This document shows, one piece after another, positions 10,602-64,000 of a stretch of DNA of 64,000 nt. Source of the stretch: Candidatus Saccharimonadota bacterium. Lineage in GTDB: Bacteria; Patescibacteriota; Saccharimonadia; Saccharimonadales; JAXHNE01. The position numbers and the translations under genes are program-made. The DNA is taken from NCBI GenBank assembly GCA_034520885.1, contig JAXHNE010000008.1:100-64099 (forward strand), in the 5' to 3' direction. The number at the start of each line of letters is the position of its first letter. The stretch's first letter is position 1. The notes beneath the pieces were generated by a model that saw only the letters and a list, made by a program, of their open reading frames with translations, made no database searches and was not told the origin of the DNA.

Positions 10602-10625
10602 TGTTATATAACTAGTTATATAACA
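10602..10625. promoter_or_regulatory. 24-bp double palindrome TGTTATATAACTAGTTATATAACA (family copy 1 of 4)
   Basis: A perfect palindrome. Each half, GTTATATAAC, is itself palindromic. Confidence 0.5.
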
Positions 10626-10631
10626 AAATCA

Positions 10632-10648
10632 TGTTCGCAAAATGTTCA
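10632..10648 (+). promoter_or_regulatory. TGTTCGCAAAATGTTCA motif, copy 2
   Basis: It lies 6 nt after the palindrome. The flank ATCATGTTCGCAAAATGTTCAG resembles ACCATGGTAGCAAAGATGTTTAG, which sits beside the 54339 and 56408 palindromes. Confidence 0.3.
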
Positions 10649-24766: not shown

Positions 24767-25073
24767 ATCTAACGGTCAGGCTTGCCCACCAAAGCTTCAG
24801 CGACGGCGGGACATCAGGCAGTCGTAATAAGGCTTATCCGTTTATCGAAAAAAACTGGGAATGTTTACAGGAGGCGGGTCGATCCCGAATCGAACCCCAC
24901 ACGTACGTTACAATAAACCAAGTCACGGTCCCTTCGTCTAACGGTCAGGCTTGCCCGCCAAAGCTTCAGCGACGGCGGGACATCAGGTTCTCTCCGCTGA
25001 AGAGCGGACTGAAAATAAGGCGGCTCGATTCCGAATCGAACCCCCACACGTACGTTACAATAAACCAAGTCAC
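24767..25073 (+). repeat. Two decayed tandem copies of the tRNA-Glu 5' half plus its upstream flank
   Basis: 24767-24818 and 24927-24992 match tRNA-Glu positions ~1/10 to 36. Each carries an identical-position 30-nt hairpin insert (CTTGCCC[A/G]CCAAAGCTTCAGCGACGGCGGG) in the D-arm. The flank CGAATCGAACCCC(C)ACACGTACGTTACAATAAACCAAGTCAC is repeated at 24880-24926 and 25033-25073. Confidence 0.7.
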
Positions 25074-25148
25074 GGTCCCTTCGTCTAGTGGTCAGGACAT
25101 CAGGTTCTCATCCTGAAAACACGGGTTCGACTCCCGTAGGGATCACCA
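25074..25148 (+). tRNA. tRNA-Glu (anticodon CUC), CCA encoded
   Basis: The cloverleaf folds by hand. The acceptor is GGTCCCT/AGGGATC, the anticodon loop is TTCTCAT, and the T-arm is ACGGGTTCGACTCCCGT. Confidence 0.9.
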
Positions 25149-27360: not shown

Positions 27361-27380
27361 GGCAATTACTCCGTAATTTA

Positions 27381-27412
27381 GAGGGTAGACGTTAGAGGTT
27401 AGAAGTTAGTGG
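27381..27412 (-). repeat. Heptad-periodic G-poor tract (short copy, pyrimidine-rich on - strand)
   Basis: The reverse complement reads CCACTAA CTTCTAA CCTCTAA CGTCTAC CCTCTAA. Confidence 0.6.
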
Positions 27413-30741: not shown

Positions 30742-32268
30742 TTACGAATTCTCTAATGCTTTGACGGAGGTTTTTAGCCGGGCAAAGGTTTTTTGCTTTC
30801 CCAGTACCGCCAAGGTCTCCGCTAACCCCGGACTGGCCGGTGCCCACGTGGTAGCGATACGAATCAGGCTCAGCAGTACGGCCGGTTTGTGACCGGTGTC
30901 TTCCAGGAGTTGATTGAGCTTGGCCTGCAGGTCATCGGCGGAAAAATCGCTGGTTTCCAGTGCGTTTTCGGTGCGTTGCAGTAAATCTTTTAACTCCGAT
31001 GTGTCAAACTTCTTTAGTTTTTTATGATTTTTTATGAGTGACATGTCAACCGGCAAGTCAGTAAAGAAGAAACGTGTCAACTCTGGCAGTTCCGCAAAGT
31101 ATTTCATGCGCTCCTGTACAAGGCCGAGCACTTGTTTTTTATAAGCTTCACTCGCCTCATCTGCTTCCGCCGGCCAAAAGCTTTGCCCTTCTTCGCTCTC
31201 TGTTCTCCGTTCTCCTGTCTTCAATCCTCTTTGCCCGCTTACGAGCTCATAAAGCTCGTCGAGCTCCATCTGGCGGATAAAATGGCCGTTGGCCCACAGC
31301 AAACGGCGCTGATCAAAACGCGCGCCGCCTTTTTGCACGCGGTCCAGGTCGAACTTGTCGATCAGCTCTTTCGTGGTAAATATTTCTTGTTCGGTACCGT
31401 CATTCCAGCCCAGCGTGGCGATAAAACTAATCAGTGCCTCCGGGAGATAGCCTTCTCGCAGGTAATCCAAAATATCTTTGGCACCGTCGCGTTTGGATAA
31501 CTTTTTATTCCCCTGCTCGTTCATGATCGGCGGCATAGTGGCCAAGATCGGGCGTTCCAGCTTTAAAGCTTCATAAAGGTTTAAGTAATTCGGTACGCTG
31601 GCCAAAAACTCCTGCCCGCGGATTACGTGGCTAATTCGCATTTCGGCGTCGTCCACGATGTGCGCGAAGTTGTAGGTAGGAAAGCCGTCGGATTTTATGA
31701 GCACGAAGTCGTCGACCACTTCCGGCCCGGTGGACATTTCGCCCATGACTTCATCATGCCAGGCGTAGGCTTTGGGATCGGACTTAAACCGGAGTGGCAC
31801 GCCGCCGCGCCCCGTGGCGTATGCTTTGGGGTTCCAGGCGGTGTCGTTTCTTTGTTCTTCGGAAACGAAGTTACGATACAAAAAGGCTTTCTTTTCTTTT
31901 TGGGCTTGCTCGCGAAATTTTTGTACTTCTTCATTGCCGTACGGATCGGCGTAGGCCCGCCCGCTATCCAGGAGCTTTTGTGCCCATTTTTTATAGATAT
32001 CCAGTCGTTCGCTTTGCCGGTACGGGGCGTAGTCGCCGGGCTTATCCGGCCCTTCATCGTAATCCAGTCCCAGGGCGCGTAAGGAATCGCTAATGTGCTG
32101 AGCGGCGCCCTCTACTTCCCGCTTTTGGTCGGTGTCTTCCAGGCGCAGCACGAACTGCCCGCCGGCTTGCCGGGCCAATAACCACGCGAAAAGCGCGGTA
32201 CGAATACCGCCAACATGTAAATAGCCCGTAGGGCTCGGGGCGAATCGTGTACGTACTGCTTTACTCAT
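30742..32268 (-). CDS. gltX: Glutamate--tRNA ligase
   Basis: RTRFAPSPTGYLHVGG (HIGH-type motif) and KLSKR (KMSKS-type motif). Confidence 0.95.
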   Translation of the reverse strand: MSKAVRTRFAPSPTGYLHVGGIRTALFAWLLARQAGGQFVLRLEDTDQKREVEGAAQHISDSLRALGLDYDEGPDKPGDYAPYRQSERLDIYKKWAQKLLDSGRAYADPYGNEEVQKFREQAQKEKKAFLYRNFVSEEQRNDTAWNPKAYATGRGGVPLRFKSDPKAYAWHDEVMGEMSTGPEVVDDFVLIKSDGFPTYNFAHIVDDAEMRISHVIRGQEFLASVPNYLNLYEALKLERPILATMPPIMNEQGNKKLSKRDGAKDILDYLREGYLPEALISFIATLGWNDGTEQEIFTTKELIDKFDLDRVQKGGARFDQRRLLWANGHFIRQMELDELYELVSGQRGLKTGERRTESEEGQSFWPAEADEASEAYKKQVLGLVQERMKYFAELPELTRFFFTDLPVDMSLIKNHKKLKKFDTSELKDLLQRTENALETSDFSADDLQAKLNQLLEDTGHKPAVLLSLIRIATTWAPASPGLAETLAVLGKQKTFARLKTSVKALENS

Positions 32269-32319
32269 TACAGGCTAGTATGCCACAAACAGAGGTAATT
32301 TGTCACGAGATGTACGACG

Positions 32320-32351
32320 GGGGTGTTATATAACTAGTTATATAACACCCC
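32320..32351. promoter_or_regulatory. 32-bp perfect palindrome GGGGTGTTATATAACTAGTTATATAACACCCC (family copy 2 of 4)
   Basis: It contains the 24-bp core. It lies 51 nt upstream of the gltX ATG, directly after a terminator in the - strand sense. Confidence 0.5.
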
Positions 32352-32352
32352 G

Positions 32353-32387
32353 AAAAACACCCACGTGAATAAGCGTGGGTGTTTTTT
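32353..32387. terminator. Bidirectional intrinsic terminator
   Basis: AAAAA + CACCCACG / CGTGGGTG + TTTTTT. Confidence 0.55.
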
Positions 32388-32469
32388 ACATAACTTAGCT
32401 GTTATTCTGCGAACAATTTGTTCGGAAAGAGTTTGGAGCTCACTCGCCACCCATTTTTTACTTATTACT

Positions 32470-32665
32470 TTCCCCATCTTCCATCTTCTAGCCGTTGCAT
32501 TCAATCCCCATTCCCCAATCTTCCATCTGTCATAACTATCACCTATTATCTATCATCTATTAACTATTAATTCTCACCTATGCGGCTTTGCCGCACTCAC
32601 CCATTGCGACGAAGTCACTTGCCATATTCCATCTTCTAAATTCCATCTTCCAACTACTAACCCCT
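32470..32665 (+). repeat. Heptad-periodic G-poor tract with embedded small hairpins
   Basis: TCTTCCA TCTTCTA ... TAACTAT CACCTAT TATCTAT CATCTAT TAACTAT TAATTCT. It contains TGCGGCTTTGCCGCA and CCATTGCGACGAAGTC. Confidence 0.7.
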
Positions 32666-33701
32666 AAAGACCGCTGGCGATTCGTAAAAGCTGGTCGGTG
32701 TTCAACGAGGACTCGCCTTCTACTTGAAACCAGACGCCACCGCTGACCCAAGTGGCGTTGTTGTCACCGTAAATATAAATGGTTTTGCCTTTGTCCTGTA
32801 CGGTTTGGAACGGCCGGTCGGAAGCTTGCACGTAGTTTTCCAGCAGTGCCTGGCTGTTCCAGTCGGAGTTTTGTTGCACGATCTTAAAATTGCGGTCATC
32901 GGCGGAATTGGATTGGTAGGAAAGCGCGATTTGTCCGGTGCTGTATTCGATCGGTCCGGACAAGTCAAAGCCGGCCGGTTCGTAGCCCGGTAACTTGGCT
33001 TCCACGCCGGCCCGTGTGGCGGCTAGTTGCACCGCTAGCGTGGGAAGGTGCTGTTTGGCAAAAAGCCCGCCAACGCTCAGAACCAACAAAACGCCCAGTC
33101 CGGTGGACAATGCGCGCGGGCTAATACGTAATTTCCGGGAAGCTCGCTCCCGGAAGGTTAACTTGCTGGGAGCCGGTTGTTCGTGGCTGTTGGCACGCTG
33201 CAAGGCCATGTCGAAGGGCGAAAGCGGCAGGACGCTCCGCTTGGCGGGCTCTGGTTCCGCGCTCGTGTCTTGTGCTGGTTGTTCGGGCGGCGGTGATTTG
33301 ATTTCCATCGGCTGGGTACTGGTTTTGGCCTGAAACTTGGCCACGTGCGGGTGTTTTTGCACTTGCTGAGCGCGTGAAACGCGAGCTTGGTCGGGCTGCA
33401 TGGTTCGCTTGGCTATCGGCCGGGACGGCGTAGTGTTTGCCTCGGATGACAAAGCCGGCTTTGCGAGACCTTGCCGACGCAAAGTTTTGGATTTATTCAC
33501 TTTGTTGTGTACGGCGTGGGAAGGAGTCGGCGTTTTCGGCGTCACCGTTTTTTGTGGTGCGATGCGGCGCACGGGGGTGAACCCATCGACCGAACGCGGT
33601 TTGTCGACCCCGGCGTTATTAGCCACTCGCCCCAGTTGCTCGCCGGTGCGAGCGTCGTACTTATATCCGTTTAATTCAATTGTATCGTTTTGTGTTGTCA
33701 C
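32664..33701 (-). CDS. Hypothetical single-pass membrane protein (basic/Pro-rich N-half, globular C-half)
   Basis: 345-aa ORF with the TM segment LGVLLVLSVGGLFA. No confident domain. Confidence 0.5.
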   Translation of the reverse strand: MTTQNDTIELNGYKYDARTGEQLGRVANNAGVDKPRSVDGFTPVRRIAPQKTVTPKTPTPSHAVHNKVNKSKTLRRQGLAKPALSSEANTTPSRPIAKRTMQPDQARVSRAQQVQKHPHVAKFQAKTSTQPMEIKSPPPEQPAQDTSAEPEPAKRSVLPLSPFDMALQRANSHEQPAPSKLTFRERASRKLRISPRALSTGLGVLLVLSVGGLFAKQHLPTLAVQLAATRAGVEAKLPGYEPAGFDLSGPIEYSTGQIALSYQSNSADDRNFKIVQQNSDWNSQALLENYVQASDRPFQTVQDKGKTIYIYGDNNATWVSGGVWFQVEGESSLNTDQLLRIASGL

Positions 33702-40648: not shown

Positions 40649-41610
40649 TACGTAATTTCTATACTTACCGGGCAGTGGTCGCTGCCCATGACTTGATCAT
40701 GAATTTCGGCTTTTTTAACCTTGTTTTTTATGGATTCCGATACCAAAAAGTAATCGATACGCCAGCCAACGTTGCGTTCGCGGGCGTTGGCCCAATGCGT
40801 CCACCAGGTGTAGTGGCCGTTGCCTTTTGTGAATAGGCGGAACGTATCCACGAAGCCGGCTTTTAACCAGTCGTCAAAGCCGCGGCGTTCTTCGTCCGTA
40901 AAGCCTTTTTTGCCTTTGTTGTCTTTTGGCCGCGCCAGGTCATCCTCGGTATGCGCGACGTTCATATCACCGCAATACACCACCGGCTTCGTTTTTTGCA
41001 GGTCCGCACAGTAAGCAATCATCGCTTGGTCCCATTTTTCGCGCAATGGCAGCCGGGTCAGATCGTTCTTGGCGTTGGGCGTGTAGGCGGTGACCACGTA
41101 GAATTCGTCGTACTCCGCGGCAACTACCCTGCCCTCTTGGGTGGCATCGCCATATCCATCGCCGTTTAAGCCGGCTTGTTTTACGAACTTTTCCGGGATG
41201 CCATTAATTACCGCGATGGGCTTGGTTTTGGTGAAAATCGCCGTGCCGCTGTAACCTTTTTTTTGCGCGCTGTTCCAGTATTCTTCGTAGTCGGGCAAAT
41301 CAACCGGAGACTGACCTTGTTCAGCCGGAAGATCGACACCGCCCGAACTTTCGGGCTGCGCAGCCAGCTCAGCGGCCATCCGTGACTTTTCGCTTCGCGT
41401 CGTAGCTTCGGCTACGCCTTGTCGCGATAAAGCTCCCGGCTGGTTCACTGCTCTGGCTTCTCGCCATTTCGAAAGTTGGACAGCGTCAATCTTGGTTTCT
41501 TGTAAGCACAGAATGTCCGGTTGGTGTTCTTTTATGAAAGGTTCGAATAATTCCTTGCGGTGCACCGCCCGAATGCCGTTTACGTTCCAAGAATAAATCT
41601 TCATCCCCAC
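40648..41610 (-). CDS. xth: Exodeoxyribonuclease III with ~55-aa internal low-complexity insertion
   Basis: Motifs WNVNGIR, LCLQETK, GDMNVAH, WRIDY and SDHCPV. Confidence 0.9.
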   Translation of the reverse strand: MGMKIYSWNVNGIRAVHRKELFEPFIKEHQPDILCLQETKIDAVQLSKWREARAVNQPGALSRQGVAEATTRSEKSRMAAELAAQPESSGGVDLPAEQGQSPVDLPDYEEYWNSAQKKGYSGTAIFTKTKPIAVINGIPEKFVKQAGLNGDGYGDATQEGRVVAAEYDEFYVVTAYTPNAKNDLTRLPLREKWDQAMIAYCADLQKTKPVVYCGDMNVAHTEDDLARPKDNKGKKGFTDEERRGFDDWLKAGFVDTFRLFTKGNGHYTWWTHWANARERNVGWRIDYFLVSESIKNKVKKAEIHDQVMGSDHCPVSIEIT

Positions 41611-41630
41611 AAGTATAGCATTCCAAAAAT

Positions 41631-41664
41631 TCTCATTTTCGTGACGATCGTCACGAAAATGAGA
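41631..41664. promoter_or_regulatory. 34-bp perfect palindrome in xth/pyrH divergent region (second copy 42282-42315)
   Basis: TCTCATTTTCGTGACGA|TCGTCACGAAAATGAGA. Confidence 0.45.
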
Positions 41665-41739
41665 GTTTATGGGGTAATTTTGGGCGGGATTTTTTTGTTA
41701 TTTCTGGTAAACTTAATGGCAATGTATAAACGCGTACTA

Positions 41740-42261
41740 CTAAAGATTTCCGGCGAGCAACTGGCCGGTGAATTCGAAGGCGGGATAGACCCTAAGCATG
41801 CTGGCTGGTTGGCCGATTAAGCCGGCTTGTTTTACGAACTTTTCCGGGATGCCATTAATTACCGCGATGGGCTTGGTTTTGGTGAAAATCGCCGTGCCGC
41901 TGTAACCTTTTTTTTGCGCGCTGTTCCAGTATTCTTCGTAGTCGGGCAAATCAACCGGAGACTGACCTTGTTCAGCCGGAAGATCGACACCGCCCGAACT
42001 TTCGGGCTGCGCAGCCAGCTCAGCGGCCATCCGTGACTTTTCGCTTCGCGTCGTAGCTTCGGCTACGCCTTGTCGCGATAAAGCTCCCGGCTGGTTCACT
42101 GCTCTGGCTTCTCGCCATTTCGAAAGTTGGACAGCGTCAATCTTGGTTTCTTGTAAGCACAGAATGTCCGGTTGGTGTTCTTTTATGAAAGGTTCGAATA
42201 ATTCCTTGCGGTGCACCGCCCGAATGCCGTTTACGTTCCAAGAATAAATCTTCATCCCCAC
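41740..42261 (-). pseudogene. Truncated duplicate of xth (N-terminal 147 codons, then out-of-context tail)
   Basis: Identical to the xth N-terminus and created by the 651-bp duplication. Confidence 0.7.
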
Positions 42262-42366
42262 AAGTATAGCATTCCAAAAATTCTCATTTTCGTGACGATC
42301 GTCACGAAAATGAGAGTTTATGGGGTAATTTTGAGCGGGATTTTTTTGTTATTTCTGGTAAACTTA

Positions 42367-50962: not shown

Positions 50963-51128
50963 CGCCCACCCTCACCTATCACCTATAACCAATCACCTAT
51001 TAATTCTCATCTATCATCCATTGCGACGAAGTCGCCTACCACCTTCCACCTTCCACCTTCCAACGTCTACCCTCTAACCTCTAACTTCTAGCATCTATCA
51101 ACTACTATCTATCACCAACTCCCGCTAC
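50963..51128 (+). repeat. Heptad-periodic G-poor tract
   Basis: CCACCTT CCACCTT CCACCTT CCAACGT CTACCCT CTAACCT CTAACTT CTAGCAT CTATCAA CTACTAT CTATCAC. It contains CCATTGCGACGAAGTCGC. Confidence 0.75.
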
Positions 51129-51243
51129 GCCTCCCAGTCTTCAATCGTAATCTTCCCATTCTCTTCAGTAACCACGACTTTCTGGTGCTCCCGCCAGGCC
51201 AGCTTGTTCATGATTTCTTTGGGAATGGTTACCATACAGTTTC
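51125..51243 (-). pseudogene. 3' fragment (last ~37 codons) of an AbrB/SpoVT-like gene
   Basis: Translates as YMVTIPKEIMNKLAWREHQKVVVTEENGKITIEDWEA*. It is clearly homologous to the intact gene at 54140-54322. It has no start codon or promoter. Confidence 0.7.
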
Positions 51244-51328: not shown

Positions 51329-51431
51329 GAATATGAAAACAAAAAGTTAAAACTCACCTGCTTAAATCAAGAAGGGAGGTGGATTTAACTTAAACTATTA
51401 GTTGTTAAATATCTTAAAATGGAGGGAGATT

Positions 51432-51656
51432 ATGAGCGCAGAAACACTGCTACGTTCAAGTGAAGAAGAAAAACTGCCGGAGGTTACAGGGGAGCAAGCG
51501 GCTTCGCTAGGTGAAACAGTTTTCTCGGCCTTGGCCGTAGATGCTGAATTGGCGACTAAAGGCGAAGACGGCGGATATGGTGGAGCGGAAAACTATGAGT
51601 TTACGAACTCCGTTACGCGGCTGGGCGATGGCCAAACTGTGCCCGACGAAAGATAA
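51432..51656 (+). CDS. Candidate graspetide (omega-ester/amide RiPP) precursor peptide, 74 aa
   Basis: GGAGGGA RBS 5 nt before the ATG. The leader is acidic. The C-terminal region ATKGEDGGYGGAENYEFTNSVTRLGDGQTVPDER is rich in Thr/Ser/Lys donors and Asp/Glu acceptors. It lies immediately upstream of the ATP-grasp ligase. Confidence 0.6.
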   Translation: MSAETLLRSSEEEKLPEVTGEQAASLGETVFSALAVDAELATKGEDGGYGGAENYEFTNSVTRLGDGQTVPDER

Positions 51657-51669
51657 CCAGGCGCGGTAA

Positions 51670-51696
51670 GGGTGGTTACTGTAGCCACCCTTTTTT
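51670..51696 (+). terminator. Intrinsic terminator/attenuator between precursor and ligase genes
   Basis: Stem GGGTGG / CCACCC followed by TTTTTT, ending 3 nt before the ligase ATG. Confidence 0.5.
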
Positions 51697-51699
51697 ATT

Positions 51700-52674
51700 A
51701 TGTCTGAAATCGCAATTTTTAGTACGAGTTTCGATCAGCCGACTTATGGGCCTGTGGCTTCCAAACTGCATGAGCGTGGCTACGAAACCTGGGTTTATAA
51801 AGCCGACAAGGTGCTCAGCGGCGAGGATGAATTAACAGTAAGGGTTAACGATGAAGGATTTGGTCTTGTCTATAACGGCGTTAGTCGAGTTTTAAGTGAC
51901 ACCGGCTGCGCTTGGTTTCGACATCCAGAAGTGTACGGATTGAATTATCCAGACAAAGCAAAGCAAATGAGTATTGAGCAAGAAACATCAAATTTGCAAG
52001 AATCATTTTGGCGACAAGTTCCTGACGAAGCTTGGCTGAATCATCCTCGGCAAATGCAGAAAGCGCAGGCAAAATTGTCTCAGTTAGTCTTAGCCCAGGA
52101 GCTGGGTTTTCACGTACCAGCAACAGTTGTCTCCAGTTCTTGGGAAGAAATTGATAATTTAAGTTCTTCTAAAGAATTTGAAGACATCATTGTGAAGATG
52201 CCAAGAGGGGTTTTACACGATTCGGATGGCGTGAGAGTTCTTTATGCAACAAGGCTTAATAAAGAAAGAAGAGTGTCACTACAGGAAAATAACCCGTTCC
52301 CTGCTTTCTATCAAGAATACATGACAAAGGCACGCGAATGGCGCCTCACAGTTGTTGGAGACGATGCTTTCGGAGCAGCAATTTACACAACCGAAGATGC
52401 GAAAGATGATTGGAGGCGGCATCAATTTGGTTCGGGTGTTCGTTTCGAGAAAGACGAGCTGCCCGATAAAGAAATTGATAGATGTATTAAATACTTACGA
52501 CACTTTAATTTGCTTTACGGAGCTTTTGACTTTGTAGAAGATCACGAGGGTGTACTAACATTTCTTGAATGTAATACAAATGGTCAATACCGTTGGCTGG
52601 AAGATCTTCTTGGGTTGCCGATCAGCGATGCCATTGTTTCGCAACTGGTGACAAAACACGAAAGTAACAAATAG
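51700..52674 (+). CDS. MdnC/MvdD-type ATP-grasp macrocyclase (graspetide ligase)
   Basis: Collinear by-eye matches to the microviridin ligase MdnC, listed as window/MdnC: CAWFRH/AVWYRR; AKLSQLVLAQELGFHVPATVVS/HKQLQLQVARQLGLLIPGTLTS; EWRLTVVGDDAFGAAI/ELRITIVGEQIFTAAI; DWRR/DWRK; LLYGAFDFV/LNYGAIDMI; FLECNTNGQYRWLE/FLEINPVGEFFWLE. Confidence 0.85.
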   Translation: MSEIAIFSTSFDQPTYGPVASKLHERGYETWVYKADKVLSGEDELTVRVNDEGFGLVYNGVSRVLSDTGCAWFRHPEVYGLNYPDKAKQMSIEQETSNLQESFWRQVPDEAWLNHPRQMQKAQAKLSQLVLAQELGFHVPATVVSSSWEEIDNLSSSKEFEDIIVKMPRGVLHDSDGVRVLYATRLNKERRVSLQENNPFPAFYQEYMTKAREWRLTVVGDDAFGAAIYTTEDAKDDWRRHQFGSGVRFEKDELPDKEIDRCIKYLRHFNLLYGAFDFVEDHEGVLTFLECNTNGQYRWLEDLLGLPISDAIVSQLVTKHESNK

Positions 52675-53167: not shown

Positions 53168-53500
53168 AACCTCCCATCCCCCATCTTCTATCTACCACCT
53201 ATAACCTATAACCTCTAACCTATCACCTATTAACTATTATCTATCATCCATGAGTAACTCCCGTTACTCCTCCCATCCCCCATCTTCTATTTACCAACTT
53301 CCACCTTCCAACTTCCACTTATCACCTATAACCTATCACCCCTCACCTATTAACTATTATCTATCATCTATGAGTAACTCCCGTTACTCCTCCCATCCCC
53401 CATCTTCTATTTACCAACTTCCACCTTCCATCTTCCAACTTCCATCTTCCAACTTCTAACGTCTAACCTCTAACTTCTAGCATCTATTATCTATCATCCA
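53168..53500 (+). repeat. Longest heptad-periodic G-poor tract, containing a 120-bp internal tandem duplication
   Basis: CCTATAA CCTATAA CCTCTAA CCTATCA CCTATTA ACTATTA TCTATCA. The 53223-53310 segment repeats at 53343-53430, including the hairpin GAGTAACTCCCGTTACTC. Confidence 0.8.
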
Positions 53501-53582
53501 TTCGAGTCGTTGAAGACAGTAAGAGGCGAGAATCTACTAAACGCTCATGGTTACCAGTTAAATACGTTGTATATTTAAGTAA

Positions 53583-54143
53583 ATGAGTATATTTTCACCT
53601 AATACGGTAAACTTTCGAACCGATGTAAGGGCGCATAGGCAAAAGGCGGTTGATGTGGGTGTCTATGGGCGCCCAGTCCCGGAACGTGTTGATTCTGTCT
53701 TACTCGATGGCGAACCGGTGCGTTTTGAAAATCAAGATACGGTTGAACGGGTTTTTGGTGCCGCACACGAACTAGGGAAGCTTAAACGGCATCGAGCACC
53801 TGCGGATTCTTTTGGATTCGTGGCGTTATACGGTGGATACGTTGATATTAAAAATGTTCCCAGAAGATTTGATCGTTGGTTGGATATTTCGGTTAATGAG
53901 GATCCAATATCACCGTCAGATATTGATGACGGCGATACGGTTGCCATCGGAGCGCATTACCACGATATGAAAAGCCCCATGATCCGTCACGCGCTCGTGG
54001 CGGCCGAAACCAGTGAAGACATGATGTTTTTCCACATACTTGGAAGTGACGGACCGTTTGCCTTGTCCGGACTCAAGGAAGCGCTTGACACATATAAAAG
54101 CTCGAACGTCTACAATTTTGAAGAAATAAAACTTTTGGACTAA
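53583..54143 (+). CDS. Hypothetical protein
   Basis: 186-aa ORF with no recognised domain. Its 3' end overlaps the convergent AbrB-like gene by 4 nt. Confidence 0.5.
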   Translation: MSIFSPNTVNFRTDVRAHRQKAVDVGVYGRPVPERVDSVLLDGEPVRFENQDTVERVFGAAHELGKLKRHRAPADSFGFVALYGGYVDIKNVPRRFDRWLDISVNEDPISPSDIDDGDTVAIGAHYHDMKSPMIRHALVAAETSEDMMFFHILGSDGPFALSGLKEALDTYKSSNVYNFEEIKLLD

Positions 54144-54322
54144 CCGGACCAATCGGTAATTTTAACGGTCTTGCCGTCCAGTTCGACGACAACTTTTTGG
54201 TGTTCGCGCCAGCTCAGCTTGTTCATGATTTCTTTAGGAATAGTTACCATGTAGCTTTCGCCCTCACGGCCGGTTTTTTGTATTTTACGGATGTTTTCTT
54301 CACCCAAGTCTTGCCTGCTCAT
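54140..54322 (-). CDS. AbrB/SpoVT (MazE-like) swapped-hairpin DNA-binding protein, 60 aa
   Basis: YMVTIPKEIMNKLSWREHQKVVVELDGKTVKITDW. A GAAAGG RBS is present, and the palindrome lies 16 nt upstream of the ATG. Confidence 0.8.
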   Translation of the reverse strand: MSRQDLGEENIRKIQKTGREGESYMVTIPKEIMNKLSWREHQKVVVELDGKTVKITDWSG

Positions 54323-54338
54323 CTTTGCGCCTTTCTTT

Positions 54339-54362
54339 TGTTATATAACTAGTTATATAACA
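54339..54362. promoter_or_regulatory. 24-bp double palindrome TGTTATATAACTAGTTATATAACA (family copy 3 of 4), candidate operator/-10 region of the AbrB-like gene
   Basis: A perfect palindrome that overlaps TATAAC -10-like hexamers on both strands. Confidence 0.5.
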
Positions 54363-54380
54363 CCATGGTAGCAAAGATGT

Positions 54381-54602
54381 TTAGCTCGCGGGGTTTTCTC
54401 TCTCAAGCAGTGTGCCTTTGTTGTTGAATACGAATATTTCAGATTTGTGTTTAGAGGCGTCTTTGCGAGCCGAAGCGAGAGCTTCGTTCTTTGTATTAAA
54501 AAGCTTATTGGGATTAGTCTTAACATCGGCTTTGCGTACATACCAGCCCTTGCCGTTATGTGAATCGAGATGATTCATGTATACGGTATTTTTCGGGTCC
54601 AT
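54381..54602 (-). CDS. DUF2188-like small protein
   Basis: From the internal ATG: MDPKNTVYMNHLDSHNGKGWYVRKA...FNTKNEALASARKDA...IFVFNNKGTL. Confidence 0.55.
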   Translation of the reverse strand: MDPKNTVYMNHLDSHNGKGWYVRKADVKTNPNKLFNTKNEALASARKDASKHKSEIFVFNNKGTLLERENPAS

Positions 54603-56233: not shown

Positions 56234-56342
56234 TTGATTAAAAGTTATTGGAAGCCCCCAGGCCAAACCGGAATGGAGAGAACCAGGCCGGACGGCAAAT
56301 CGAATTTCGTAGTTACCTATATGCTAAAAGCCAGCCTTTTTA

Positions 56343-56452
56343 GTTTTTGTATTTTACGGATGTTTTCTTCGCCTAAGTCCTGTCTGCTCATCTTTACGCC
56401 TTTCTTTTGTTATATAACTAGTCATATAACACCATGGTAGCAAAGATGTTTT
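56343..56452 (-). pseudogene. 5' fragment (first 16 codons) of an AbrB-like gene with RBS, palindrome (56408-56431, one mismatch) and upstream flank
   Basis: MSRQDLGEENIRKIQK is identical to the N-terminus of the 54322 gene. The ~110-nt block parallels 54276-54383. Confidence 0.7.
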
Positions 56453-56810
56453 TCTCCTGTTTCGTTGCCCGCTTTCAGCGGGGCGTGACGACCACCTTTT
56501 TGAGTCGGCAAAAAGGTGGGTAAAAAACCGACCCATGCGGCTTTGTCTTGATGGGCTCACCTGTCAAGCCTGACAACGGCCCTTGCGGAACTCCCGTTGG
56601 TCGGTCTCGCCGCTTTGTCTCATAGGAAGGCGGCTCAACTGGTCCTCGGGCGTTACTCGTTGTCAGTTTGACGTAGCTAGCCGGCGCAAAAACAAAAAGC
56701 AATATTTTTGAACAAGCCCTGAAGGCTACAAACCACGTTTCCTTCCGCAACGTATCTACGGATACGTCTTGTCAGGAGAACAAGATTTCTAGCTCATCAG
56801 AATCTTGGCT

Positions 56811-57798: not shown

Positions 57799-60621
57799 CT
57801 ATACGCCTTCGATGAAGGTTTCGATGAATTTGTTTAGCTTGGAGCTTATTCTTTCTACAATTGTTTTGCGCTTAAGCACGCTGGGCTGCTCGGCGAGCGT
57901 GTTGGCAATCTCATCTCCCCGCGGTTTGCGGCCGCTGTAGAGGTAGTTATCAATCAAACCCTGCAACTCCTCGCTCAAGACGCCTTCCTCGCGGCACATG
58001 GCTTCAAAAGCGGCAGCTTTTTCGTCGGTCCAAAAGCTTTCAAAGGTACCTTCTACATCGTCAGCATCAGAGATTTCGGGGATGTGTGATTCAATGAACT
58101 TTTCAATCAATTCGCGCTTGCTCCTGAGCGTTGCTTCGGAGTTGACAATATTTCGTATGCTCTTCTTGATGGATTCGGCTTGCTCCTCGTCAGCATCTAC
58201 TAATTTAGCCAGTAGGCGGATGATGTAGTCCACATTTATATCATCACGCCGGATGAGCTCCAGCTCAAAATCAACGTCTTCTAAAATCGACACCTTTTCC
58301 TTGGCTTGGTCGGATTTCACTTTATCGTAGATGTCCAGGTACTTACTCTTAAAATCTTCAAACGTCTGAGCATCAATAGCGGCATCTTCAAACGTAAAGT
58401 CGGTAAATGAGCGCAGTACGTTGCGCAGACGCATTACTTCACGAAAATGCTGCACAAACTCTAGTTGCTGATCTTCGCCAACTAGCTCGTCTACCCCGCT
58501 CGGGGTGGAGGCGAGATGTCGCATTTCCATGATTGCCTGGTTGAAGTTTTTCAGATAGGTCTCATACGGGTGCATAAAGATGGTTTCTTTAGCGTCTACA
58601 TTGCTAAATAGCTGAATGGCGTCGTCGGTATACTCTTTAAGATTACGAAACACGACGATATTTCCCTGGGATTTAGCGTCGCCCAAAATGCGATTAGTTC
58701 GCGAATAAGCCTGTAGCAACCCGTGATAACGCAGGTTTTTATCAACATAGAGTGTATTAAGCCTTGGGCTAAGCCGAAGCCTGGAGCATGTCCGCCGCTA
58801 CAGCAAAATATCGATCTCGTTATTTTTTACGCGCCGGGCAATATCGCGGTAGTAATGATAAAAGCTCTTGCTGTCTTTAGTGGTGTAGCTCGTGCCAAAC
58901 ATTTTGTTGTAGTCATTTATGTAGCTTTCTAGCCGGTCGCGACTATGTTTATCCAAGCTGCCGAGCGACAGTTGCGGGCCAGCGTCGTGCGCGAGCATTT
59001 CTGCTTTGTCGTCCTCGTTGGCGCTGTAGGTAAAAATTGTCGCGATTTTAAGCTTGCGATCTTTGTCAGCCTGTTTTTGTTTAAATAGCTCATAGTATTT
59101 GCACAACACATCTACGCTAGACACGGCAAAGATTGCGTTAAAGTCACGGGAGTGCGTTTTGCGATCATGGTTGGCCAAAATGTAATCAGTGATCTGCCCG
59201 AGTCGTTGTGGTGACTCCATTAATTCTTTGGTATCAAGAGCTTCTACTTCTATATCCTGTTCGTTTTTCGTATCTTTGCGTCTGTAGCGGCCAACATACT
59301 CCACGCTGAACTTCAGCACGTTTTCATCATTAATTGCATCGGTGATGACGTATTGGTGTAGGCGATCTCCAAATAAATCCTTGGTAGTCCGCTTGCCAAG
59401 TGCGTTGCCGGTGGCGTTATCGGCGAATATTGGTGTGCCGGTGAACCCAAACAGTTGTTTGTTATTAAAAAACTCTACAATTCGCTTGTGCGTTTCGCCA
59501 AACTGGCTGCGATGACATTCGTCAAAAATAAAGACGATCTTCTCATCTTTGTGCTCGTCCATCTTAAGCAAATGTTTTTGGTGCGTAATGGCGTTATTAA
59601 GCTTTTGGATGGTAGTAACGATCAGCTTGCTATCCGGATCGGCAAACTGCTTCACGAGCTGTTTGGTGTTGTCGGTAGTGTCCACGCTGTTTGCTTTGAA
59701 GTTATTGAACTCTTTGATTGTTTGCGTATCGAGGTCGTTTCGGTCTACCACGAACACAACTTTGTAAATATCCGGCAAGTCTACGAGAATTTGGCTGGCT
59801 TTAAAAGAGGTCAAAGTTTTGCCACTACCAGTTGTGTGCCAAATATAGCCGCCTTTGTTGCTGTGTTTTACGCGGTCTACCAGAGCTTCGACTGCGTAGT
59901 ATTGATACGGTCGCAGCGCCATCAGGGTTTTGGTTTCGGCTAGCACAATGTGCTTGGCAATCATTTTGCTAATGTGGCAGCGCTCTAGAAAACTTTCGGT
60001 AAATTCCGCAAGTTCGGTTATTTTGTGGTTGTCTTTGTCCGTCCAGTAGCTAGTGAACTTAAAGCCGGCTTTGCGGTTATTGGCGTAGTATTTGGTGTTT
60101 ACACCGTTACTAATTACAAATAGCTGGATGTACTGAAACAGCCCGTATGACGAATCGTAACTATGCTTTTGGTAGCGATGTGTCTGGTTAAAGGCTTCTT
60201 TTAATTCTAATCCCCGGCGTTTAAGCTCCACTTGCACCAGTGGTAAACCGTTTATCAGCAGCGTTACGTCGTAGCGGTTTTTGTAAGCCCCATGCATGGT
60301 GACTTGGCTAGTCACCTGGTATTGGTTTTGACACCATTCTTTTTGGTTAAAAAACTCTACATAAAAGTTCCCCTCATCACGCTTGAGCACGTATTTATCG
60401 CGCAGGGTCTGCGCTTTATCGAACACGTTACCTTTGCTCAGGTGATTGAGGATTTGCTGAAACTCTTTTTCGTTAAAGGTTGTTTGATTATGTTTTTCCA
60501 GCTGGGTTTTTAGGTTCGCGAGCAAATCTTTTTCTTCACGAATCGTTACACGTTCGTATTTCAAACCTTCAAGCTGCTTTATAAGGTTATTTTCTAGTGT
60601 TTGCTCGGATTGCGTGGTCAC
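57799..60621 (-). pseudogene. hsdR: Type I restriction enzyme R subunit HsdR, interrupted by in-frame TAG inside a scrambled motif V
   Basis: The N-terminal ORF has HTTGSGKT and FDECHRSQ. The C-terminal ORF starts at LQAYSRTNR (motif VI). Both ORFs are in the same frame, separated by a TAG at 58798-58800. Confidence 0.85.
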
Positions 60622-61262
60622 TTTGCGCCGATAATATCTTTAAATTTCTTTCCGATAGTAGTGATGCTAAGTTTTTCCATATCTTCTAGAGCTTTCTTTG
60701 CGTCATTCATATACTTGACTGGTGTGTAAGCAGCAAAATCTTCTTGTCGGCTCATGTACAATTTGTCAAATATTTCCATGCGTTGATTATAGTTTTTTAG
60801 CTGTGACTCTGTGTCCTGTTCGCCTGTATTGTCAAGGAAGTCCTTTGTTATTTCGGCAAACATCCTTTGTTTGTTGTACCTGATTTGTCTTATATCATCG
60901 TCAAATGATGCAGCACTTGCTTTTATTGACTCATCCAAGACTTTTGCGTTCTGATAAAAATCTGTGATTGTCTCCCATTCGTCTTTATCAAAGTTACTAG
61001 AGAATAAATGGCTGTATTTTGACCAAGAATCATCCCGAATTATATTCAGGTCAAGGTTGAGACTACCTCGCCTTGTTGCTTCTTTAAGCTTTGGGATACA
61101 GCTCTCAATGTGCTGAATTTCTAAGAAAATAGAATTTGCTGCAGCGACCTTCCGGTCATTCTTCTGACGTCTATAAATTAAGAACGCGAATAGCCCTACA
61201 ATAAACGTTACGAAAGTTTGTAGAAAGTTTGAATTTAGAAAATTTACGAAAATTTCCATCAT
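60618..61262 (-). CDS. Hypothetical 214-aa protein with N-terminal TM helix, embedded between hsdS and hsdR
   Basis: TM segment FLQTFVTFIVGLFAFLIY, then a helical soluble part. A GTGA overlap couples it to the hsdR start, and an ATGA overlap couples it to the upstream ORF. Confidence 0.6.
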   Translation of the reverse strand: MMEIFVNFLNSNFLQTFVTFIVGLFAFLIYRRQKNDRKVAAANSIFLEIQHIESCIPKLKEATRRGSLNLDLNIIRDDSWSKYSHLFSSNFDKDEWETITDFYQNAKVLDESIKASAASFDDDIRQIRYNKQRMFAEITKDFLDNTGEQDTESQLKNYNQRMEIFDKLYMSRQEDFAAYTPVKYMNDAKKALEDMEKLSITTIGKKFKDIIGAK

Positions 61263-61570
61263 TTACCGTCCTTGTTTTCAAACATGGATAGTTTATCAAT
61301 TGTTTTAATATCAAGTTTGTTAAGCATTTCCAGCATAGCGGACATTGATTCTACCTCGTCTTTTGTAGGTATTTTTTTGTTTTCTATTTCTGCAAGTTTT
61401 GATTTCATTGCTTCAATTAGCTTCATTGCTTGCTCAAATCTCTTCGCTAATTTTTCGTATTGTTCTTTGCTCGGCGAAGAGGGTGTGTCCAACATTTCAA
61501 GTGTTGCTTTTAGGCTTCCGTACTCTTCGTCTATTTTGCCGCTCTGTTTAAGGTCATCGTAATCACTCAT
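61259..61570 (-). CDS. Hypothetical 103-aa acidic/Lys-rich coiled-coil protein, embedded in the R-M operon
   Basis: It starts 20 nt after the hsdS stop. An ATGA overlap couples it to the 214-aa ORF. Confidence 0.55.
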   Translation of the reverse strand: MSDYDDLKQSGKIDEEYGSLKATLEMLDTPSSPSKEQYEKLAKRFEQAMKLIEAMKSKLAEIENKKIPTKDEVESMSAMLEMLNKLDIKTIDKLSMFENKDGK

Positions 61571-61590
61571 ATGAATCTCCTTTGCTTAAA

Positions 61591-62865
61591 TTATATAAAC
61601 ATCTGCTGGAGGAGGGATTTTTTGAATTTCTTGGCTTGTTCCAGCTTCTTCTCCTCTAATTCTATTTTAGCATCCAAGCTTTTTAAGAAGTCGGCGATTT
61701 TCTGCTGTTCTTCAAGTACTGGCATTTTAACCTTGGTATTCTTGGCTCCGTCAATTGTGTATGTGGCGACTGTGGTAATCGACGCATTATCAGCCATCTG
61801 TTTTTGTATAAACCGAGTTTGAAGCGCCTGGAAGAGAAACTTTGGATCTAACTTTTCCGATTTCCTAAACCACAAGACATTACCATCTTTGAAATAAAAC
61901 TTATCATCATTATCAACCAAATACGCCGATCCGATACTACCTACCCCAGTGACAAGCATATCTCCAGGCTTCGGTGTGCCATATTTTTTGGATAGCTCAT
62001 CGTATAGGTTTTCTGAAATAAATATAGGGGTTCTGAACGGCTTACCTTGTGCCAAATTGATGATCTCTCTAGTCCTATAGAAAGGCACACCTGATTGTTG
62101 CCAGTCTTTCTGTAGAACTCTTTTGCTAGATCCAATTTCCATTACCCCCCCTAGCTTTTTTTCTTGCCAGGCGGGTAAGGGTTTGCCGTTGTCGTCTTTG
62201 AAGCGAATTTCGGGCGTCTGTACTGAGCTTGTCGAAGGAAAGATTTTTTGCATGATGCCTTTTTTGTATTTTTTCAGCAGCTCCACCTTTTTATCAATCG
62301 CAGAAACCTTATCATCAACAGTAGATAAAAACCCCGCAATTTTCTCTTGTTCATCTTTGGTTGGAAGAGCAAATTTCATTCGCTTGAGGTGTGTAGGGCC
62401 AAAATGATGTAGCACTGCTCCTGTGCTCATAATCTTAGCTTGTCGTTGAAAGACCGGAGAGGTTAGTAGCTGTTTTAGATATTTTTTCTCAGAAATATTA
62501 GTTGGACGAAAGCGGATTATACCAGTGTAGGCAACGGAGCCAACAGTATCACTGTCGACTTCACTTACGTTGCCAAGCGTTCCGCTAGTCGTGACCAGCA
62601 TATCGCCAGTTTTCAGTCTGAAATGACTCCATTTTTCATCAACTTTACTTGGATCAAGATAGTTACACCCTTCAAGTGTAACTGATTGTCCAGAGAGTCC
62701 ACTTAATCTGATTAGTGGCACGCCGTCATCGTGAAAATCTTTTGCTAAAATTCCCGGTCCTTCTTGAAAATCAGCAATGTTTGGAAGCATTTCTTCTTCC
62801 CACTCTCCATTAAACCCCGGAAACCTCAGTTTTGGCACTTTTCTGGTTTTTGTATCAGCAGTCAT
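61591..62865 (-). CDS. hsdS: Type I restriction-modification specificity subunit HsdS (two target-recognition domains)
   Basis: N-terminus VPKLRFPGFNGEWEE. Each half ends in a conserved helical spacer: KKVELLKKYKKGIMQKIF and KKLEQAKKFKKSLLQQMF. Confidence 0.9.
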   Translation of the reverse strand: MTADTKTRKVPKLRFPGFNGEWEEEMLPNIADFQEGPGILAKDFHDDGVPLIRLSGLSGQSVTLEGCNYLDPSKVDEKWSHFRLKTGDMLVTTSGTLGNVSEVDSDTVGSVAYTGIIRFRPTNISEKKYLKQLLTSPVFQRQAKIMSTGAVLHHFGPTHLKRMKFALPTKDEQEKIAGFLSTVDDKVSAIDKKVELLKKYKKGIMQKIFPSTSSVQTPEIRFKDDNGKPLPAWQEKKLGGVMEIGSSKRVLQKDWQQSGVPFYRTREIINLAQGKPFRTPIFISENLYDELSKKYGTPKPGDMLVTGVGSIGSAYLVDNDDKFYFKDGNVLWFRKSEKLDPKFLFQALQTRFIQKQMADNASITTVATYTIDGAKNTKVKMPVLEEQQKIADFLKSLDAKIELEEKKLEQAKKFKKSLLQQMFI

Positions 62866-63722
62866 TTTTTTGCCATCCCCTTTTGCTTATTAGCCAACCC
62901 AATACTAAATAAAGGCTGCTTGAAGCTGAAGCCTCCGTGCGAGTTCTTCCATTCTTTCTGTATTAGAGATATAGTCAAAATTTTTTCTCTGGGCTTCACC
63001 CCAAGTGTATGCAATGCAGTAAGACGTAAATTTTGTAAAAGAGTTATAACAAACGCACAGTCACCGAACAGTCTTTGTATCTTAAAGCTAACGGTTCTCT
63101 TATAAACTGCGGGAGCTCCCTCCAGCGTAGGATCATTGGCATTTTTTAGCGGCTCTTTCGAGAAGTATGTAATCTGACAGTCGGCTTCTACTAGTAGTTG
63201 GTTCTCGTTATTTTTATCTACAAGCGATACATAATTCTTACCGTGCTTTGCGCTAACACGACATCCGTGTTTGTAGGCATTCAGCAGTTGATAATTATCT
63301 AGGTAATCTTTAGCAACCGCACAAATTAAACTCGTGTATTCTTCATAGCGCTTTTTATAGTCCGGTGATTCTTTTTGAATAGCAAATATGTAGTTTGTCA
63401 AAAACCAACTAGAAAATCTAGTCGTTTTGAGAAAGTTGTCTCTTATAAATTTTTGGAGATTCTTTGAGTCAATAAATAGTGCGCTCGGGAATCTATTAGT
63501 TTTTAATGATAGTGCATAGGCATTAATGAACAACACCTCAAGTATTTGAAGGTAAATAGAATAAAGTTCAAACACAATTCTACTTTGTTTCTTTGGATCT
63601 TTTAGCCTTTCAAATTTATTATGCAGTCCATTTACTTTTTTGAACCAATAATCAATGTCCATGTTGTTATAGTGGTCTAGTTTGAACTTGTGGAGCTCCT
63701 TATCCAGAATTTGCTGGCTCAT
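62862..63722 (-). CDS. Hypothetical 286-aa protein inserted at the 5' end of hsdS; contains an R-x4-H (HEPN-like) motif
   Basis: Starts MSQQILDKELHKF. The motif context is LLNAYKHGCRVSAKHG. There are ATGA overlaps at both ends. Confidence 0.6.
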   Translation of the reverse strand: MSQQILDKELHKFKLDHYNNMDIDYWFKKVNGLHNKFERLKDPKKQSRIVFELYSIYLQILEVLFINAYALSLKTNRFPSALFIDSKNLQKFIRDNFLKTTRFSSWFLTNYIFAIQKESPDYKKRYEEYTSLICAVAKDYLDNYQLLNAYKHGCRVSAKHGKNYVSLVDKNNENQLLVEADCQITYFSKEPLKNANDPTLEGAPAVYKRTVSFKIQRLFGDCAFVITLLQNLRLTALHTLGVKPREKILTISLIQKEWKNSHGGFSFKQPLFSIGLANKQKGMAKK

Positions 63723-63793
63723 ATTCTGCCCCACTCGCCACCAAACCCCGGAAACCTCAGTTTTGGCGTATTTGTCGGTCTACTACTGTTCAT
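63719..63793 (-). pseudogene. 24-codon hsdS 5' stub
   Basis: MNSSRPTNTPKLRFPGFGGEWGRI* parallels the hsdS N-terminus MTADTKTRKVPKLRFPGFNGEWEE. The DNA core AAACCCCGGAAACCTCAGTTTTGGC is identical at 62813-62837 and 63743-63767. Confidence 0.6.
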
Positions 63794-64000
63794 TTCTTTA
63801 ACGCCTCGTAAATCTCCGTAGCAGCAACTGTAATAAACATAGCGAGTGGCACAAAAACAAAAACAATTGTTGGTATCCACCAATGTATATAGTTAAAATT
63901 AAGCTTTACTGAATCAATAACTCCAACTACGTTTAGCAATCCAAATCCTACTGATAGGAAAGCTATCATGAGCAAGTACCAAACTAGACAGAGTGAGTTG
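63790..64000 (-). CDS. Small/partial membrane protein (reading frame open to window edge)
   Basis: Two hydrophobic helices. The stop overlaps the stub ATG (ATGA). There is no in-frame stop between 63975 and the window end. Confidence 0.4.
   Translation of the reverse strand, partial: NSLCLVWYLLMIAFLSVGFGLLNVVGVIDSVKLNFNYIHWWIPTIVFVFVPLAMFITVAATEIYEALKK

Follow-up and report, generated by a model that had tools for sequence, protein, structure and literature searches.

A 24-bp double palindrome in a Saccharibacteria contig, very probably an operator tied to a 60-residue AbrB/MazE-fold protein

Background

The described systems closest to the one reported here are the type II antitoxins MazE and VapB, the AbrB, Abh and SpoVT proteins of Bacillus subtilis, MraZ, three small archaeal and plasmid proteins of SpoVT-AbrB fold, the Omega/CopG/ParG proteins, and the controller (C) proteins of restriction-modification (R-M) systems. 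The subject is a 24-bp double palindrome, TGTTATATAACTAGTTATATAACA, and the gene for a 60 amino acid protein of predicted AbrB/MazE/SpoVT fold beside which one copy of it lies, in 64,000 nt of DNA from a Candidatus Saccharimonadota bacterium (contig JAXHNE010000008.1, positions 100 to 64,099; this whole stretch is referred to as the window). Members of the candidate phyla radiation (CPR), or Patescibacteria, have very small genomes and very few recognisable regulators. To judge from sequence comparison, the palindrome is very probably an operator tied to this AbrB/SpoVT-like protein. The kind of system is familiar: DNA-binding proteins of AbrB/MazE fold that are small and control their own gene through a palindromic operator.

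MazE and VapB repress their own operon through palindromes in its promoter, and the 60-residue protein probably works in a similar way. They resemble it in predicted fold and in the PF04014 domain, and as small dimeric DNA binders, which it would be too, with a palindromic operator that overlaps the promoter of their own gene. They differ from the proteins described below, here called mini-regulators, which possess no toxin partner, no conserved downstream gene and no C-terminal toxin-binding tail, and which show a strict array of 10-bp palindromes at 12-bp phase with extra operators at unrelated genes. Because it has neither toxin partner nor tail, the 60-residue protein is not a type II antitoxin. 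AbrB, Abh and SpoVT contain the same N-terminal swapped-hairpin domain (Foldseek matches 1yfb, 2k1n and 2w1t) and are similar in combining autoregulation with the control of other genes. AbrB itself, with 94 residues, carries a C-terminal tetramerisation domain and recognises degenerate sites without a clear consensus, whereas the mini-regulators are single-domain proteins of 55–62 residues with a basic N-terminal tail and highly specific, perfectly repeated sites; since it has no C-terminal domain, the 60-residue protein is not an AbrB-type transition-state regulator. MraZ, of the AbrB superfamily, recognises direct repeats 5' of the dcw operon to which it belongs and so autoregulates through phased repeats. 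It is thus alike in being an AbrB-superfamily autoregulator with phased repeats just 5' of its own gene, but it consists of two fused domains, forms large oligomers, uses direct repeats of fixed sequence and keeps dcw synteny, while the mini-regulator family has no fixed neighbourhood.

Sso7c4, C68 of pSSVx and C56 of pSSVi are likewise stand-alone proteins of about 55–68 residues with a SpoVT-AbrB fold (Foldseek 2l66, 3o27 and 7xi6), but the matches are weak (TM 0.4–0.5) and these are archaeal chromatin or mobile-element proteins, for which we know of no defined 12-bp-phased operator. Omega, CopG and ParG are tiny dimers which bind cooperatively, side by side, to 2–10 phased repeats and control their own gene and a few extra promoters, a way of working that the mini-regulators probably share; in contrast to the latter they have a ribbon-helix-helix (RHH) fold and non-palindromic heptads at a 7-bp phase. 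C proteins are small regulators whose palindromic box precedes an R-M operon, much as a site here precedes hsdM and a homologue (locus L128) adjoins hsdR, but they are helix-turn-helix proteins encoded within the R-M operon, a linkage that is not conserved in the mini-regulator family. In the literature searched, AbrB was nowhere linked with Patescibacteria, the CPR or Saccharibacteria; the 10-mer GTTATATAAC appeared only in unrelated contexts and never as a bacterial regulatory site; and strict 12-bp phasing, diversification of specificity and a membership mainly from Patescibacteria/CPR were not found described.

Copies of the palindrome

The copies in the window, none of which was assigned a strand, are as follows.

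10602–10625: copy 1, an orphan palindrome with a promoter-like extension and no recognisable gene (sequence scan)
32320–32351: copy 2 with GGGG/CCCC arms, a perfect palindrome of 32 bp (sequence scan)
54339–54362: copy 3, 16 nt 5' of the ATG of the intact AbrB/MazE-fold gene, whose operator it is proposed to be
56408–56431: copy 4, with one mismatch, an operator before a dead gene fragment, inside a 113-nt duplication

A scan allowing up to three mismatches recovered exactly four matches to TGTTATATAACTAGTTATATAACA and none in 100 shuffles. Three are exact (10602–10625, 32324–32347, 54339–54362) and the fourth, at 56408–56431, has a single T-to-C change, so that the four copies listed in an initial annotation of this DNA, made without database searches, were all found again. 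The 24-mer consists of two self-complementary 10-mers, GTTATATAAC, 12 bp apart from centre to centre; this architecture, pointed out in the same annotation, is conserved throughout the family described below, and the lengthening of copy 2 by its arms to 32 bp was confirmed as well. When up to one mismatch is allowed, GTTATATAAC is confined to the eight half-sites of the four copies and no isolated or degenerate half-site occurs in the window; its sites are therefore either perfect or missing altogether. The same genome has a fifth exact copy, some 4.85 kb outside the window and 5' of hsdM, the gene with which a type I R-M operon begins. This copy occupies positions 6–29 of contig L122, which is 100% identical to window positions 60135–64000, runs 4.9 kb further and stops 5 nt past the palindrome. 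All five copies are intergenic.

Copies 1, 3 and 4 have a flanking extension in common, as had been noticed at the outset; the similarity is genuine, though not strong (copy 1 aligned locally with copy 3 scores 20, against 11.7 +/- 2.0 for shuffles, p ~0.004). Outside the palindrome copy 2 has nothing in common with the other copies, and the gltX and hsdM copies share only the 24-mer with the promoter-operator-gene cassette. Rfam models run over the whole window at the gathering threshold reported only 3 tRNAs and nothing at the palindromes.

The 60-residue protein

54140–54322, minus strand: gene for a 60 amino acid AbrB/MazE/SpoVT-fold protein, the proposed binder of the palindrome (PF04014, AlphaFold2, Foldseek)

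The 24-mer of copy 3 is separated by 16 nt from the ATG of this gene at 54322. The protein contains a PF04014 (MazE/SpoVT-AbrB) domain with 30.8 bits against a cutoff of 24.7 (E 2.8e-7), while its TIGR01439 score stays under the cutoff (19.9 vs 28.3). The AlphaFold2 model, computed as a monomer from a 77-sequence family alignment, has a mean pLDDT of 86 and a beta-beta-alpha-beta-beta order, with predicted strands at residues 15–17, 23–25, 44–49 and 52–57 and a helix at 30–36. Its best Foldseek match is MazE (1ub4_C, TM 0.70, rmsd 1.3 Å), further matches being AbrB-N, SpoVT and the AbrB-type VapB (TM 0.57–0.70 over the best matches); on this model the chain would have the looped-hinge helix or swapped-hairpin fold. 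Sequence and predicted fold alike place the protein in the SpoVT/AbrB superfamily. A sequence search of solved structures with the protein gave nothing below E 0.1.

The N-terminal tail is basic and the chain ends 2–3 residues past the last beta-strand. The protein thus has a single domain, without the C-terminal oligomerisation domain of AbrB and without an antitoxin tail. The palindromic half-sites suggest that it forms homodimers and binds DNA. Binding by two dimers or by a tetramer had been put forward initially. Since the oligomerisation domain is missing, a pre-formed tetramer is not implied; two to four dimers side by side are the better fit.

A family with probable phased operators

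Most likely, as far as comparative sequence data go, the protein belongs to a large uncharacterised CPR family in which each member has its own 12-bp-phased palindromic site. A genome-wide pattern search, suggested in the initial annotation, was run for GTTATATAAC-NN-GTTATATAAC over 185,579 species genomes; it returned 35 loci, and several of the CPR matches do precede homologues (at L009, L013, L025 and L032 the motif lies 8–39 nt 5' of a homologous gene for 55–62 residues). A profile search from the protein side gave at least 304 clusters (50% identity) at E <=0.001, and a metagenome scan covered 80 loci of at least 174 relatives. Family proteins are 55–62 residues long. Nearly all members with a named source are Patescibacteria (Saccharibacteria, Woese-, Pace-, Kaiser- and Parcubacteria, Paceibacterota), and their existing annotations read hypothetical, AbrB/MazE/SpoVT-domain or "MazE antitoxin".

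The 110 nt upstream of each family gene were examined for repeats. Two to four tandem 10-bp palindromes were present upstream of nearly all of them, with two units in 29 cases, three in 13 and four in 4. Scored as two palindromic 10-mers 12 nt apart, 46 of the 64 distinct upstream regions reached 16/20 or more, against 2 of 174 random segments taken from the same loci as controls. Twelve was the best period of those from 10 to 20 in 47 of the 64 regions, and scores of at least 18/20 numbered 29 at period 12 and 0–1 at any other. The palindrome itself varies by subfamily, occurring as GTTATATAAC, GATTTAAATC, (G/T)ATTTAAAT(C/A), GAGTTAACTC, GAATTAATTC, GTTAAGTAAC, GGGAATTCCC and TGTATATACA, and operator similarity tracks protein similarity (Mantel r 0.29; 0 of 2000 permutations). 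Operators of the TTATATAA type accompany a longer loop, TGR-x-G-x-SY, and LPKE. When homologues of this class were looked up by protein first, five of five groups (L036, L126/127, L128, L037/38 and L055) possessed a tandem site with the TTATATAA core. The L036 homologue (78% identity) has TGTTATACAACTAGTTATATAACA 16 nt 5' of its ATG, those of L126 and L127 (80% identity) have the identical 24-mer at the same distance, and that of L128 (64% identity) has CTTATATAATTAATTATATAAG 19 nt 5' of the ATG.

No conserved neighbouring gene or toxin was found among 47 family loci. The downstream genes are mutually unrelated (enolase, Mur ligase, holB, U32 peptidase, EVE), a zeta-toxin-like gene lies downstream in one locus, and other flanking genes include OLD, ResIII, a transposase and glycosyltransferases; in the window the next gene after 54140–54322 is convergent (53583–54143, plus strand). 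The repeats hence travel with the AbrB-like gene alone, and the arrangement is not a fixed toxin-antitoxin pair. Phased sites, co-variation and unrelated neighbours together argue for an autoregulated DNA-binding protein with a co-evolving operator and not for a generic promoter. Dozens of natural protein-operator pairs of this kind could be used to work out a recognition code for the AbrB fold or as orthogonal mini-repressors.

The same data bear on whether some other protein binds the palindrome, the AbrB-like gene being merely one of its targets. The same 22-mer does stand 5' of MarR-family genes in three alphaproteobacteria; against this, tandem palindromes follow the AbrB-like gene through dozens of unrelated contexts with no other conserved neighbour, and they change with the sequence of the AbrB-like protein, which leaves a different binder improbable. 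The three cases have GTTATATAAC-NN-GTTATATAAC 4–21 nt 5' of homologous MarR-like genes (L003, Rhizobium sp. Root1212; L006, an uncultured alphaproteobacterium; L033, Hyphomonas polymorpha). They apparently belong to an unrelated system and are probably the autoregulatory site of the MarR-like genes themselves, so proteins of other folds may read the same DNA sequence. Matches to the 22-mer outside the CPR (Rhizobium, Hyphomonas, Mycobacterium, Streptococcus, archaea) were set aside as other systems or chance. A phage origin was also rejected: no relatives were found in 2.9 million viral contigs, and the motif occurred in just two viral contigs, which are near-identical. Four of the 35 motif loci adjoin a tRNA gene, which was judged no more than chance in compact genomes.

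It appears very improbable that the element works through a hairpin in RNA or DNA (as terminator, transcript-stabilising stem or cruciform), or is a mobile repeat resembling repetitive extragenic palindromes (REP) or miniature inverted-repeat transposable elements (MITE). It is a perfect palindrome, strong folding is predicted for copy 2 together with its GC arms (two hairpins, -39 to -43 kcal/mol, z from about -7 to about -9), and GC-clamped extensions of differing sequence are present at L024 and L029 also; yet copies 1 and 3, whose stems are A/U-only, fold weakly (-8 to -10 kcal/mol), no U-tract follows the palindrome, and there is no Rfam match. The operators moreover comprise two to four tandem units, and the central dinucleotide is non-self-complementary at 16 of the 35 genome loci, which means that a dyad over the whole site is not obligatory while the tandem 10-mers are. 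Mobility could be read from a Y1 transposase gene near the homologue in L036 and from the end of contig L122 so close to its palindrome. Against it, the 24-mers are flanked by neither terminal inverted repeats nor target duplications, and five copies in about 69 kb do not make a REP/MITE family, although a 17-nt repeat at copy 1 is unexplained. No Y1 transposase gene was noted in the window, where about 15 open reading frames (ORFs) were domain-scanned and no dedicated search was made.

Perfectly complementary GC-rich extensions of differing sequence (CGGCA/TGCCG, ACACAGT/ACTGTGT and GGGGT/ACCCC) are found at L024 3142–3177, L029 3417–3452 and window 32320–32351, in each case at a 22-mer copy that is not beside an AbrB-like gene. 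The sequence of these extensions has changed without loss of complementarity, as might be expected if a hairpin or cruciform were under selection there. The L029 copy, in Mycobacterium sp. WMMD1722, adjoins a tRNA gene.

Several points count against the reading of the 24-mer as the protein's own operator, among them the lack of conservation of the gltX site described below. A clear 12-bp tandem palindrome is wanting in 18 of the 64 family upstream regions; in some of these (L062, L110) its place is taken by a long palindrome whose GC-rich outer arms are conserved. The co-variation of protein and operator could partly reflect shared genome ancestry; L009, L013, L025 and L032 were found through the motif itself and are thus subject to ascertainment bias; and sites that are perfect or absent fit recent copying as well as selection. 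Nor are the GGGG/CCCC arms of copy 2 and the GC clamps in L024 and L029 accounted for by dimer binding.

Putative promoter and proposed mode of action

54365–54373, minus strand: putative extended -10 TGCTACCAT, 2 nt 5' of the copy 3 palindrome and within the shared extension (read from the sequence)

At the same position homologue L126 has TGTACAAT followed by GG, and L036 has TGTATAAT followed by TCC; both look like good extended -10 elements ending 2–3 nt before the palindrome. At copy 1, TGCGAACAT stands 5 nt away from it. Many family members possess TGnTATAAT immediately 5' of the repeats, and in others the repeats lie just 5' of a -10 box placed 7–12 nt from the ATG, which implies leaderless mRNAs in those members.

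At copies 3 and 4 the element had been described as overlapping a -10-like hexamer. A separate putative extended -10 lies beside copy 3, and the gltX and hsdM palindromes are upstream of the -35 box and not over a -10 box. That the palindrome is simply the common strong promoter of the lineage, a repeat of the -10-like TATAAC and not a factor-binding site, seems exceedingly improbable. The half-site resembles an extended -10 (TGTTATATAAC compared with TGnTATAAT) and the sites are intergenic and near gene starts, but only four copies exist in 64 kb with about 60 genes, the copies at gltX and hsdM have separate predicted promoters of sigma-70 type beside them, and copy 3 has its separate extended -10. 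In addition, unrelated palindromes (GATTTAAATC, GAGTTAACTC, GGGAATTCCC and others) precede homologous genes with the 12-bp phasing kept, and such swapping of the palindrome is not the behaviour of a sigma-factor site.

It is likely, on sequence grounds, that the 24-mer is the operator of the protein encoded at 54140–54322 and mediates negative autoregulation. From the sites, the predicted fold, the family-wide association of gene and operator, the phasing and the co-variation we infer the following mode of binding. Each 10-bp palindrome GTTATATAAC would bind one swapped-hairpin dimer, and two dimers would sit side by side and cooperatively on the 24-mer at the 12-bp phase. The operator at the gene itself begins 2 nt after the putative extended -10 and would cover the transcription start and early leader, so that binding should repress the gene; more generally, operators over the transcription start or over the -35/spacer region would repress by occlusion. 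The pair offers a testable regulator and operator for an uncultured Saccharibacteria lineage.

gltX, hsdM and a possible regulon

30742–32268, minus strand: gltX (glutamate-tRNA ligase), a candidate target
32277–32306, minus strand: predicted gltX promoter, GTGACA-18-CATACT with TG (extended -10), ending 8 nt before the ATG
32358–32388, no strand assigned: hairpin resembling a bidirectional terminator, separating copy 2 from the upstream gene

Copy 2 had been placed between a bidirectional terminator and gltX, 51 nt from the ATG. This is correct when measured from the GGGG arm, the 24-mer being 55 nt from the ATG at 32268. The 24-mer ends 17 nt 5' of the predicted -35 box, and since the promoter ends 8 nt before the ATG the gltX mRNA is probably leaderless. 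TTGTGGCATACT of the promoter is kept in the relative L117. In L117, the closest gltX relative, a 58-codon ORF without counterpart in the window lies between the TTGTGGCATACT promoter and the annotated gltX start (L117 3826–4000). The fifth copy ends 9 nt 5' of the -35 of a predicted TTCACA-17-TATAAT promoter of hsdM, and the two bare sites are thus in similar positions upstream of their promoters. The protein may modulate transcription from both, in either direction.

The AbrB-like gene or its operator in Saccharibacteria-like relatives repeatedly lies beside R-M genes, namely hsdR in L128 (821–4180), hsdM in L122 (1–1647) and a gene for an MmeI-type enzyme in L036 (1–1610). In the window itself HsdR appears split over two minus-strand ORFs (58798–60621 and 57799–58719, together 57799–60621) and may represent a pseudogene or a frameshift.

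A small regulon in which the AbrB-like repressor reaches gltX had been proposed, with loss of the site before gltX in close relatives as the finding that would speak against it. The tie between repressor and operator has held up, the conserved link to gltX has not: the palindrome is absent before gltX in L117, L118 and L119, the three closest relatives fetched (67–74% GltX identity), which counts further against the regulon and makes the link specific to the source lineage. L117 shares its sample of origin, though not demonstrably its genome, with L126, where the identical 24-mer is present. The gltX link is accordingly lineage-specific and unproven. Around the homologues of L036, L124 and L125, a search over 10 kb to either side gave no extra cognate site; such sites are present in L090 and L055. 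L090 has an identical 37-nt promoter-operator module (about 40 nt with one mismatch) before the regulator and before a DUF1810-like gene (assigned by N-terminal motif). In other genomes cognate sites stand 17–55 nt before rpsL (L030), tig (L014) and an acylphosphatase-like ORF (L018, assigned by N-terminal sequence).

Provided that the protein binds, the chances of real control of gltX or hsdM are about even. Candidate targets such as these two, and rpsL and tig elsewhere, could reveal control of translation and defence. A wider proposal, which we consider rather unlikely, holds that AbrB-fold proteins of 55–62 residues are a major unrecognised class of CPR transcription factors with orthogonal protein-operator pairs, and that the island member links the defence gene hsdM and gltX, an essential gene of translation, in one small regulon. 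If true, one rule, a 10-bp palindrome per dimer at 12-bp phase, would underlie fast-diversifying pairs, and a regulator on an accessory island could throttle growth or translation together with defence.

Decayed and probably decayed cassettes

56320–56391, minus strand: 5' remnant of a second gene copy (positions 1–19 of the family hidden Markov model (HMM), then a stop; hmmsearch of the six-frame translation, E 6.7e-5)
51128–51241, minus strand: 3' remnant of the gene (HMM positions 22–57) without a palindrome (family HMM, E 9e-18)
10632–10648, plus strand: 17-nt exact direct repeat TGTTCGCAAAATGTTCA, partner at 10059–10075 (2 exact matches, 0.29 expected)

Copy 4 is part of a 113-nt duplication (54275–54387 and 56344–56456, 93% identical). 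The initial annotation had copies 3 and 4 each 16 nt 5' of an AbrB-like start codon; both distances are right (that of copy 4 to the ATG at 56391), but the gene behind copy 4 is not a full one, its ORF being a truncated 5' remnant with a family-HMM match over 56320–56409. Copy 4 is thus an operator left before a dead gene fragment. The 5' and 3' remnants lie on the same strand about 5.1 kb apart and have some 10 nt in common at GGTAAC(T/C)A; from their sequences both may derive from a single older copy of the gene, interrupted by an insertion of about 5.1 kb carrying the live paralogue. The DNA between them also contains a putative locus for a ribosomally synthesised and post-translationally modified peptide (RiPP), DUF6886, DUF2188 and a 486 amino acid protein.

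Copy 1 had been recorded as without an adjacent gene, and no credible ORF was found beside it. The protein HMM detected no AbrB-like remnant there, a 21-nt promoter-like extension being all that is similar. The TGTTCGCAAAATGTTCA repeats bracket a 556-nt AT-rich non-coding segment ending in copy 1, and the one at 10632–10648 overlaps the shared extension. Rfam found nothing over 9900–11200 at E <=1. Copy 1 is probably a decayed cassette. As an observation apart, the TGTTCGCAAAATGTTCA pair could be att-like or a duplication scar. A small RNA driven by copy 1 was considered and rejected, neither strand being more structured than shuffles (z -0.4 and -1.25).

In this picture the promoter-operator-gene cassette was duplicated and then decayed at 56408 and probably at 10602, and the four loci cannot all be counted as regulon members. 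It is possible, though doubtful, that the operator is real and the regulon is not, all other copies being debris. Those at 56408 and 10602 would then be dead cassettes, and those at gltX and hsdM incidentally copied pieces of no regulatory consequence. The gene remnants at 56320–56391 and 51128–51241 agree with this, as do the promoter-like extension of copy 1 and the direct repeat around it, the missing gltX site in relatives (including the contig from the sample of the identical-24-mer homologue), the lack of extra sites near the homologues of L036, L124 and L125, and the fact that the copies are identical and not degenerate. On the other side, the gltX and hsdM copies, which have only the 24-mer in common with the cassette, both lie 9–17 nt 5' of the -35 of a recognisable promoter; unrelated genes in other genomes have cognate sites 17–55 nt before them; and none of the five copies falls within a gene.

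Other features of the window

Arrays of repeats with a 7-nt period were observed at 27379–27409, 32420–32670, 50974–51126 and 53174–53515, and also at L036 10200–10252, where the array follows the homologous AbrB-like gene. Their units are CTATCAC, CTATAAC, CTCTAAC and CTTCCAC on the plus strand and GGTGATA, GGTTAGA and GGTGGAA on the minus strand, and in those at 32597–32667 and 51014–51084 a short hairpin is embedded, either GGCGACTTCGTCGCAATGG or a form differing from it by 1 nt. The arrays are situated at gene 3' ends; for three of the four, a palindrome or an AbrB-like gene, whole or as a remnant, is no more than about 1 kb away. The units resemble heptad iterons of the kind that omega-type RHH proteins bind.

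A 50-nt palindrome (CCAAAAATTCTCATTTTCGTGACGA joined to TCGTCACGAAAATGAGAGTTTATGG) occurs twice, at 41623–41672 and 42274–42323, 651 nt apart, and beside it a 300-nt exact direct repeat (41161–41460 and 41812–42111) has the same 651-nt offset; these repeats are a recent tandem duplication or an element boundary. At 24768–25148, 5' of an intact tRNA-Glu(CTC), there are partial tandem duplications of the tRNA-Glu region (D11/D14, 96–98% identical). The ORF at 51700–52674 specifies an ATP-grasp ribosomal-peptide maturase of the graspetide/microviridin type (TIGR04187, E 6e-48), and an 84 amino acid ORF just 5' of it (51402–51656) may encode the precursor; 51402–52674 would then be a RiPP locus in a Saccharibacteria island.

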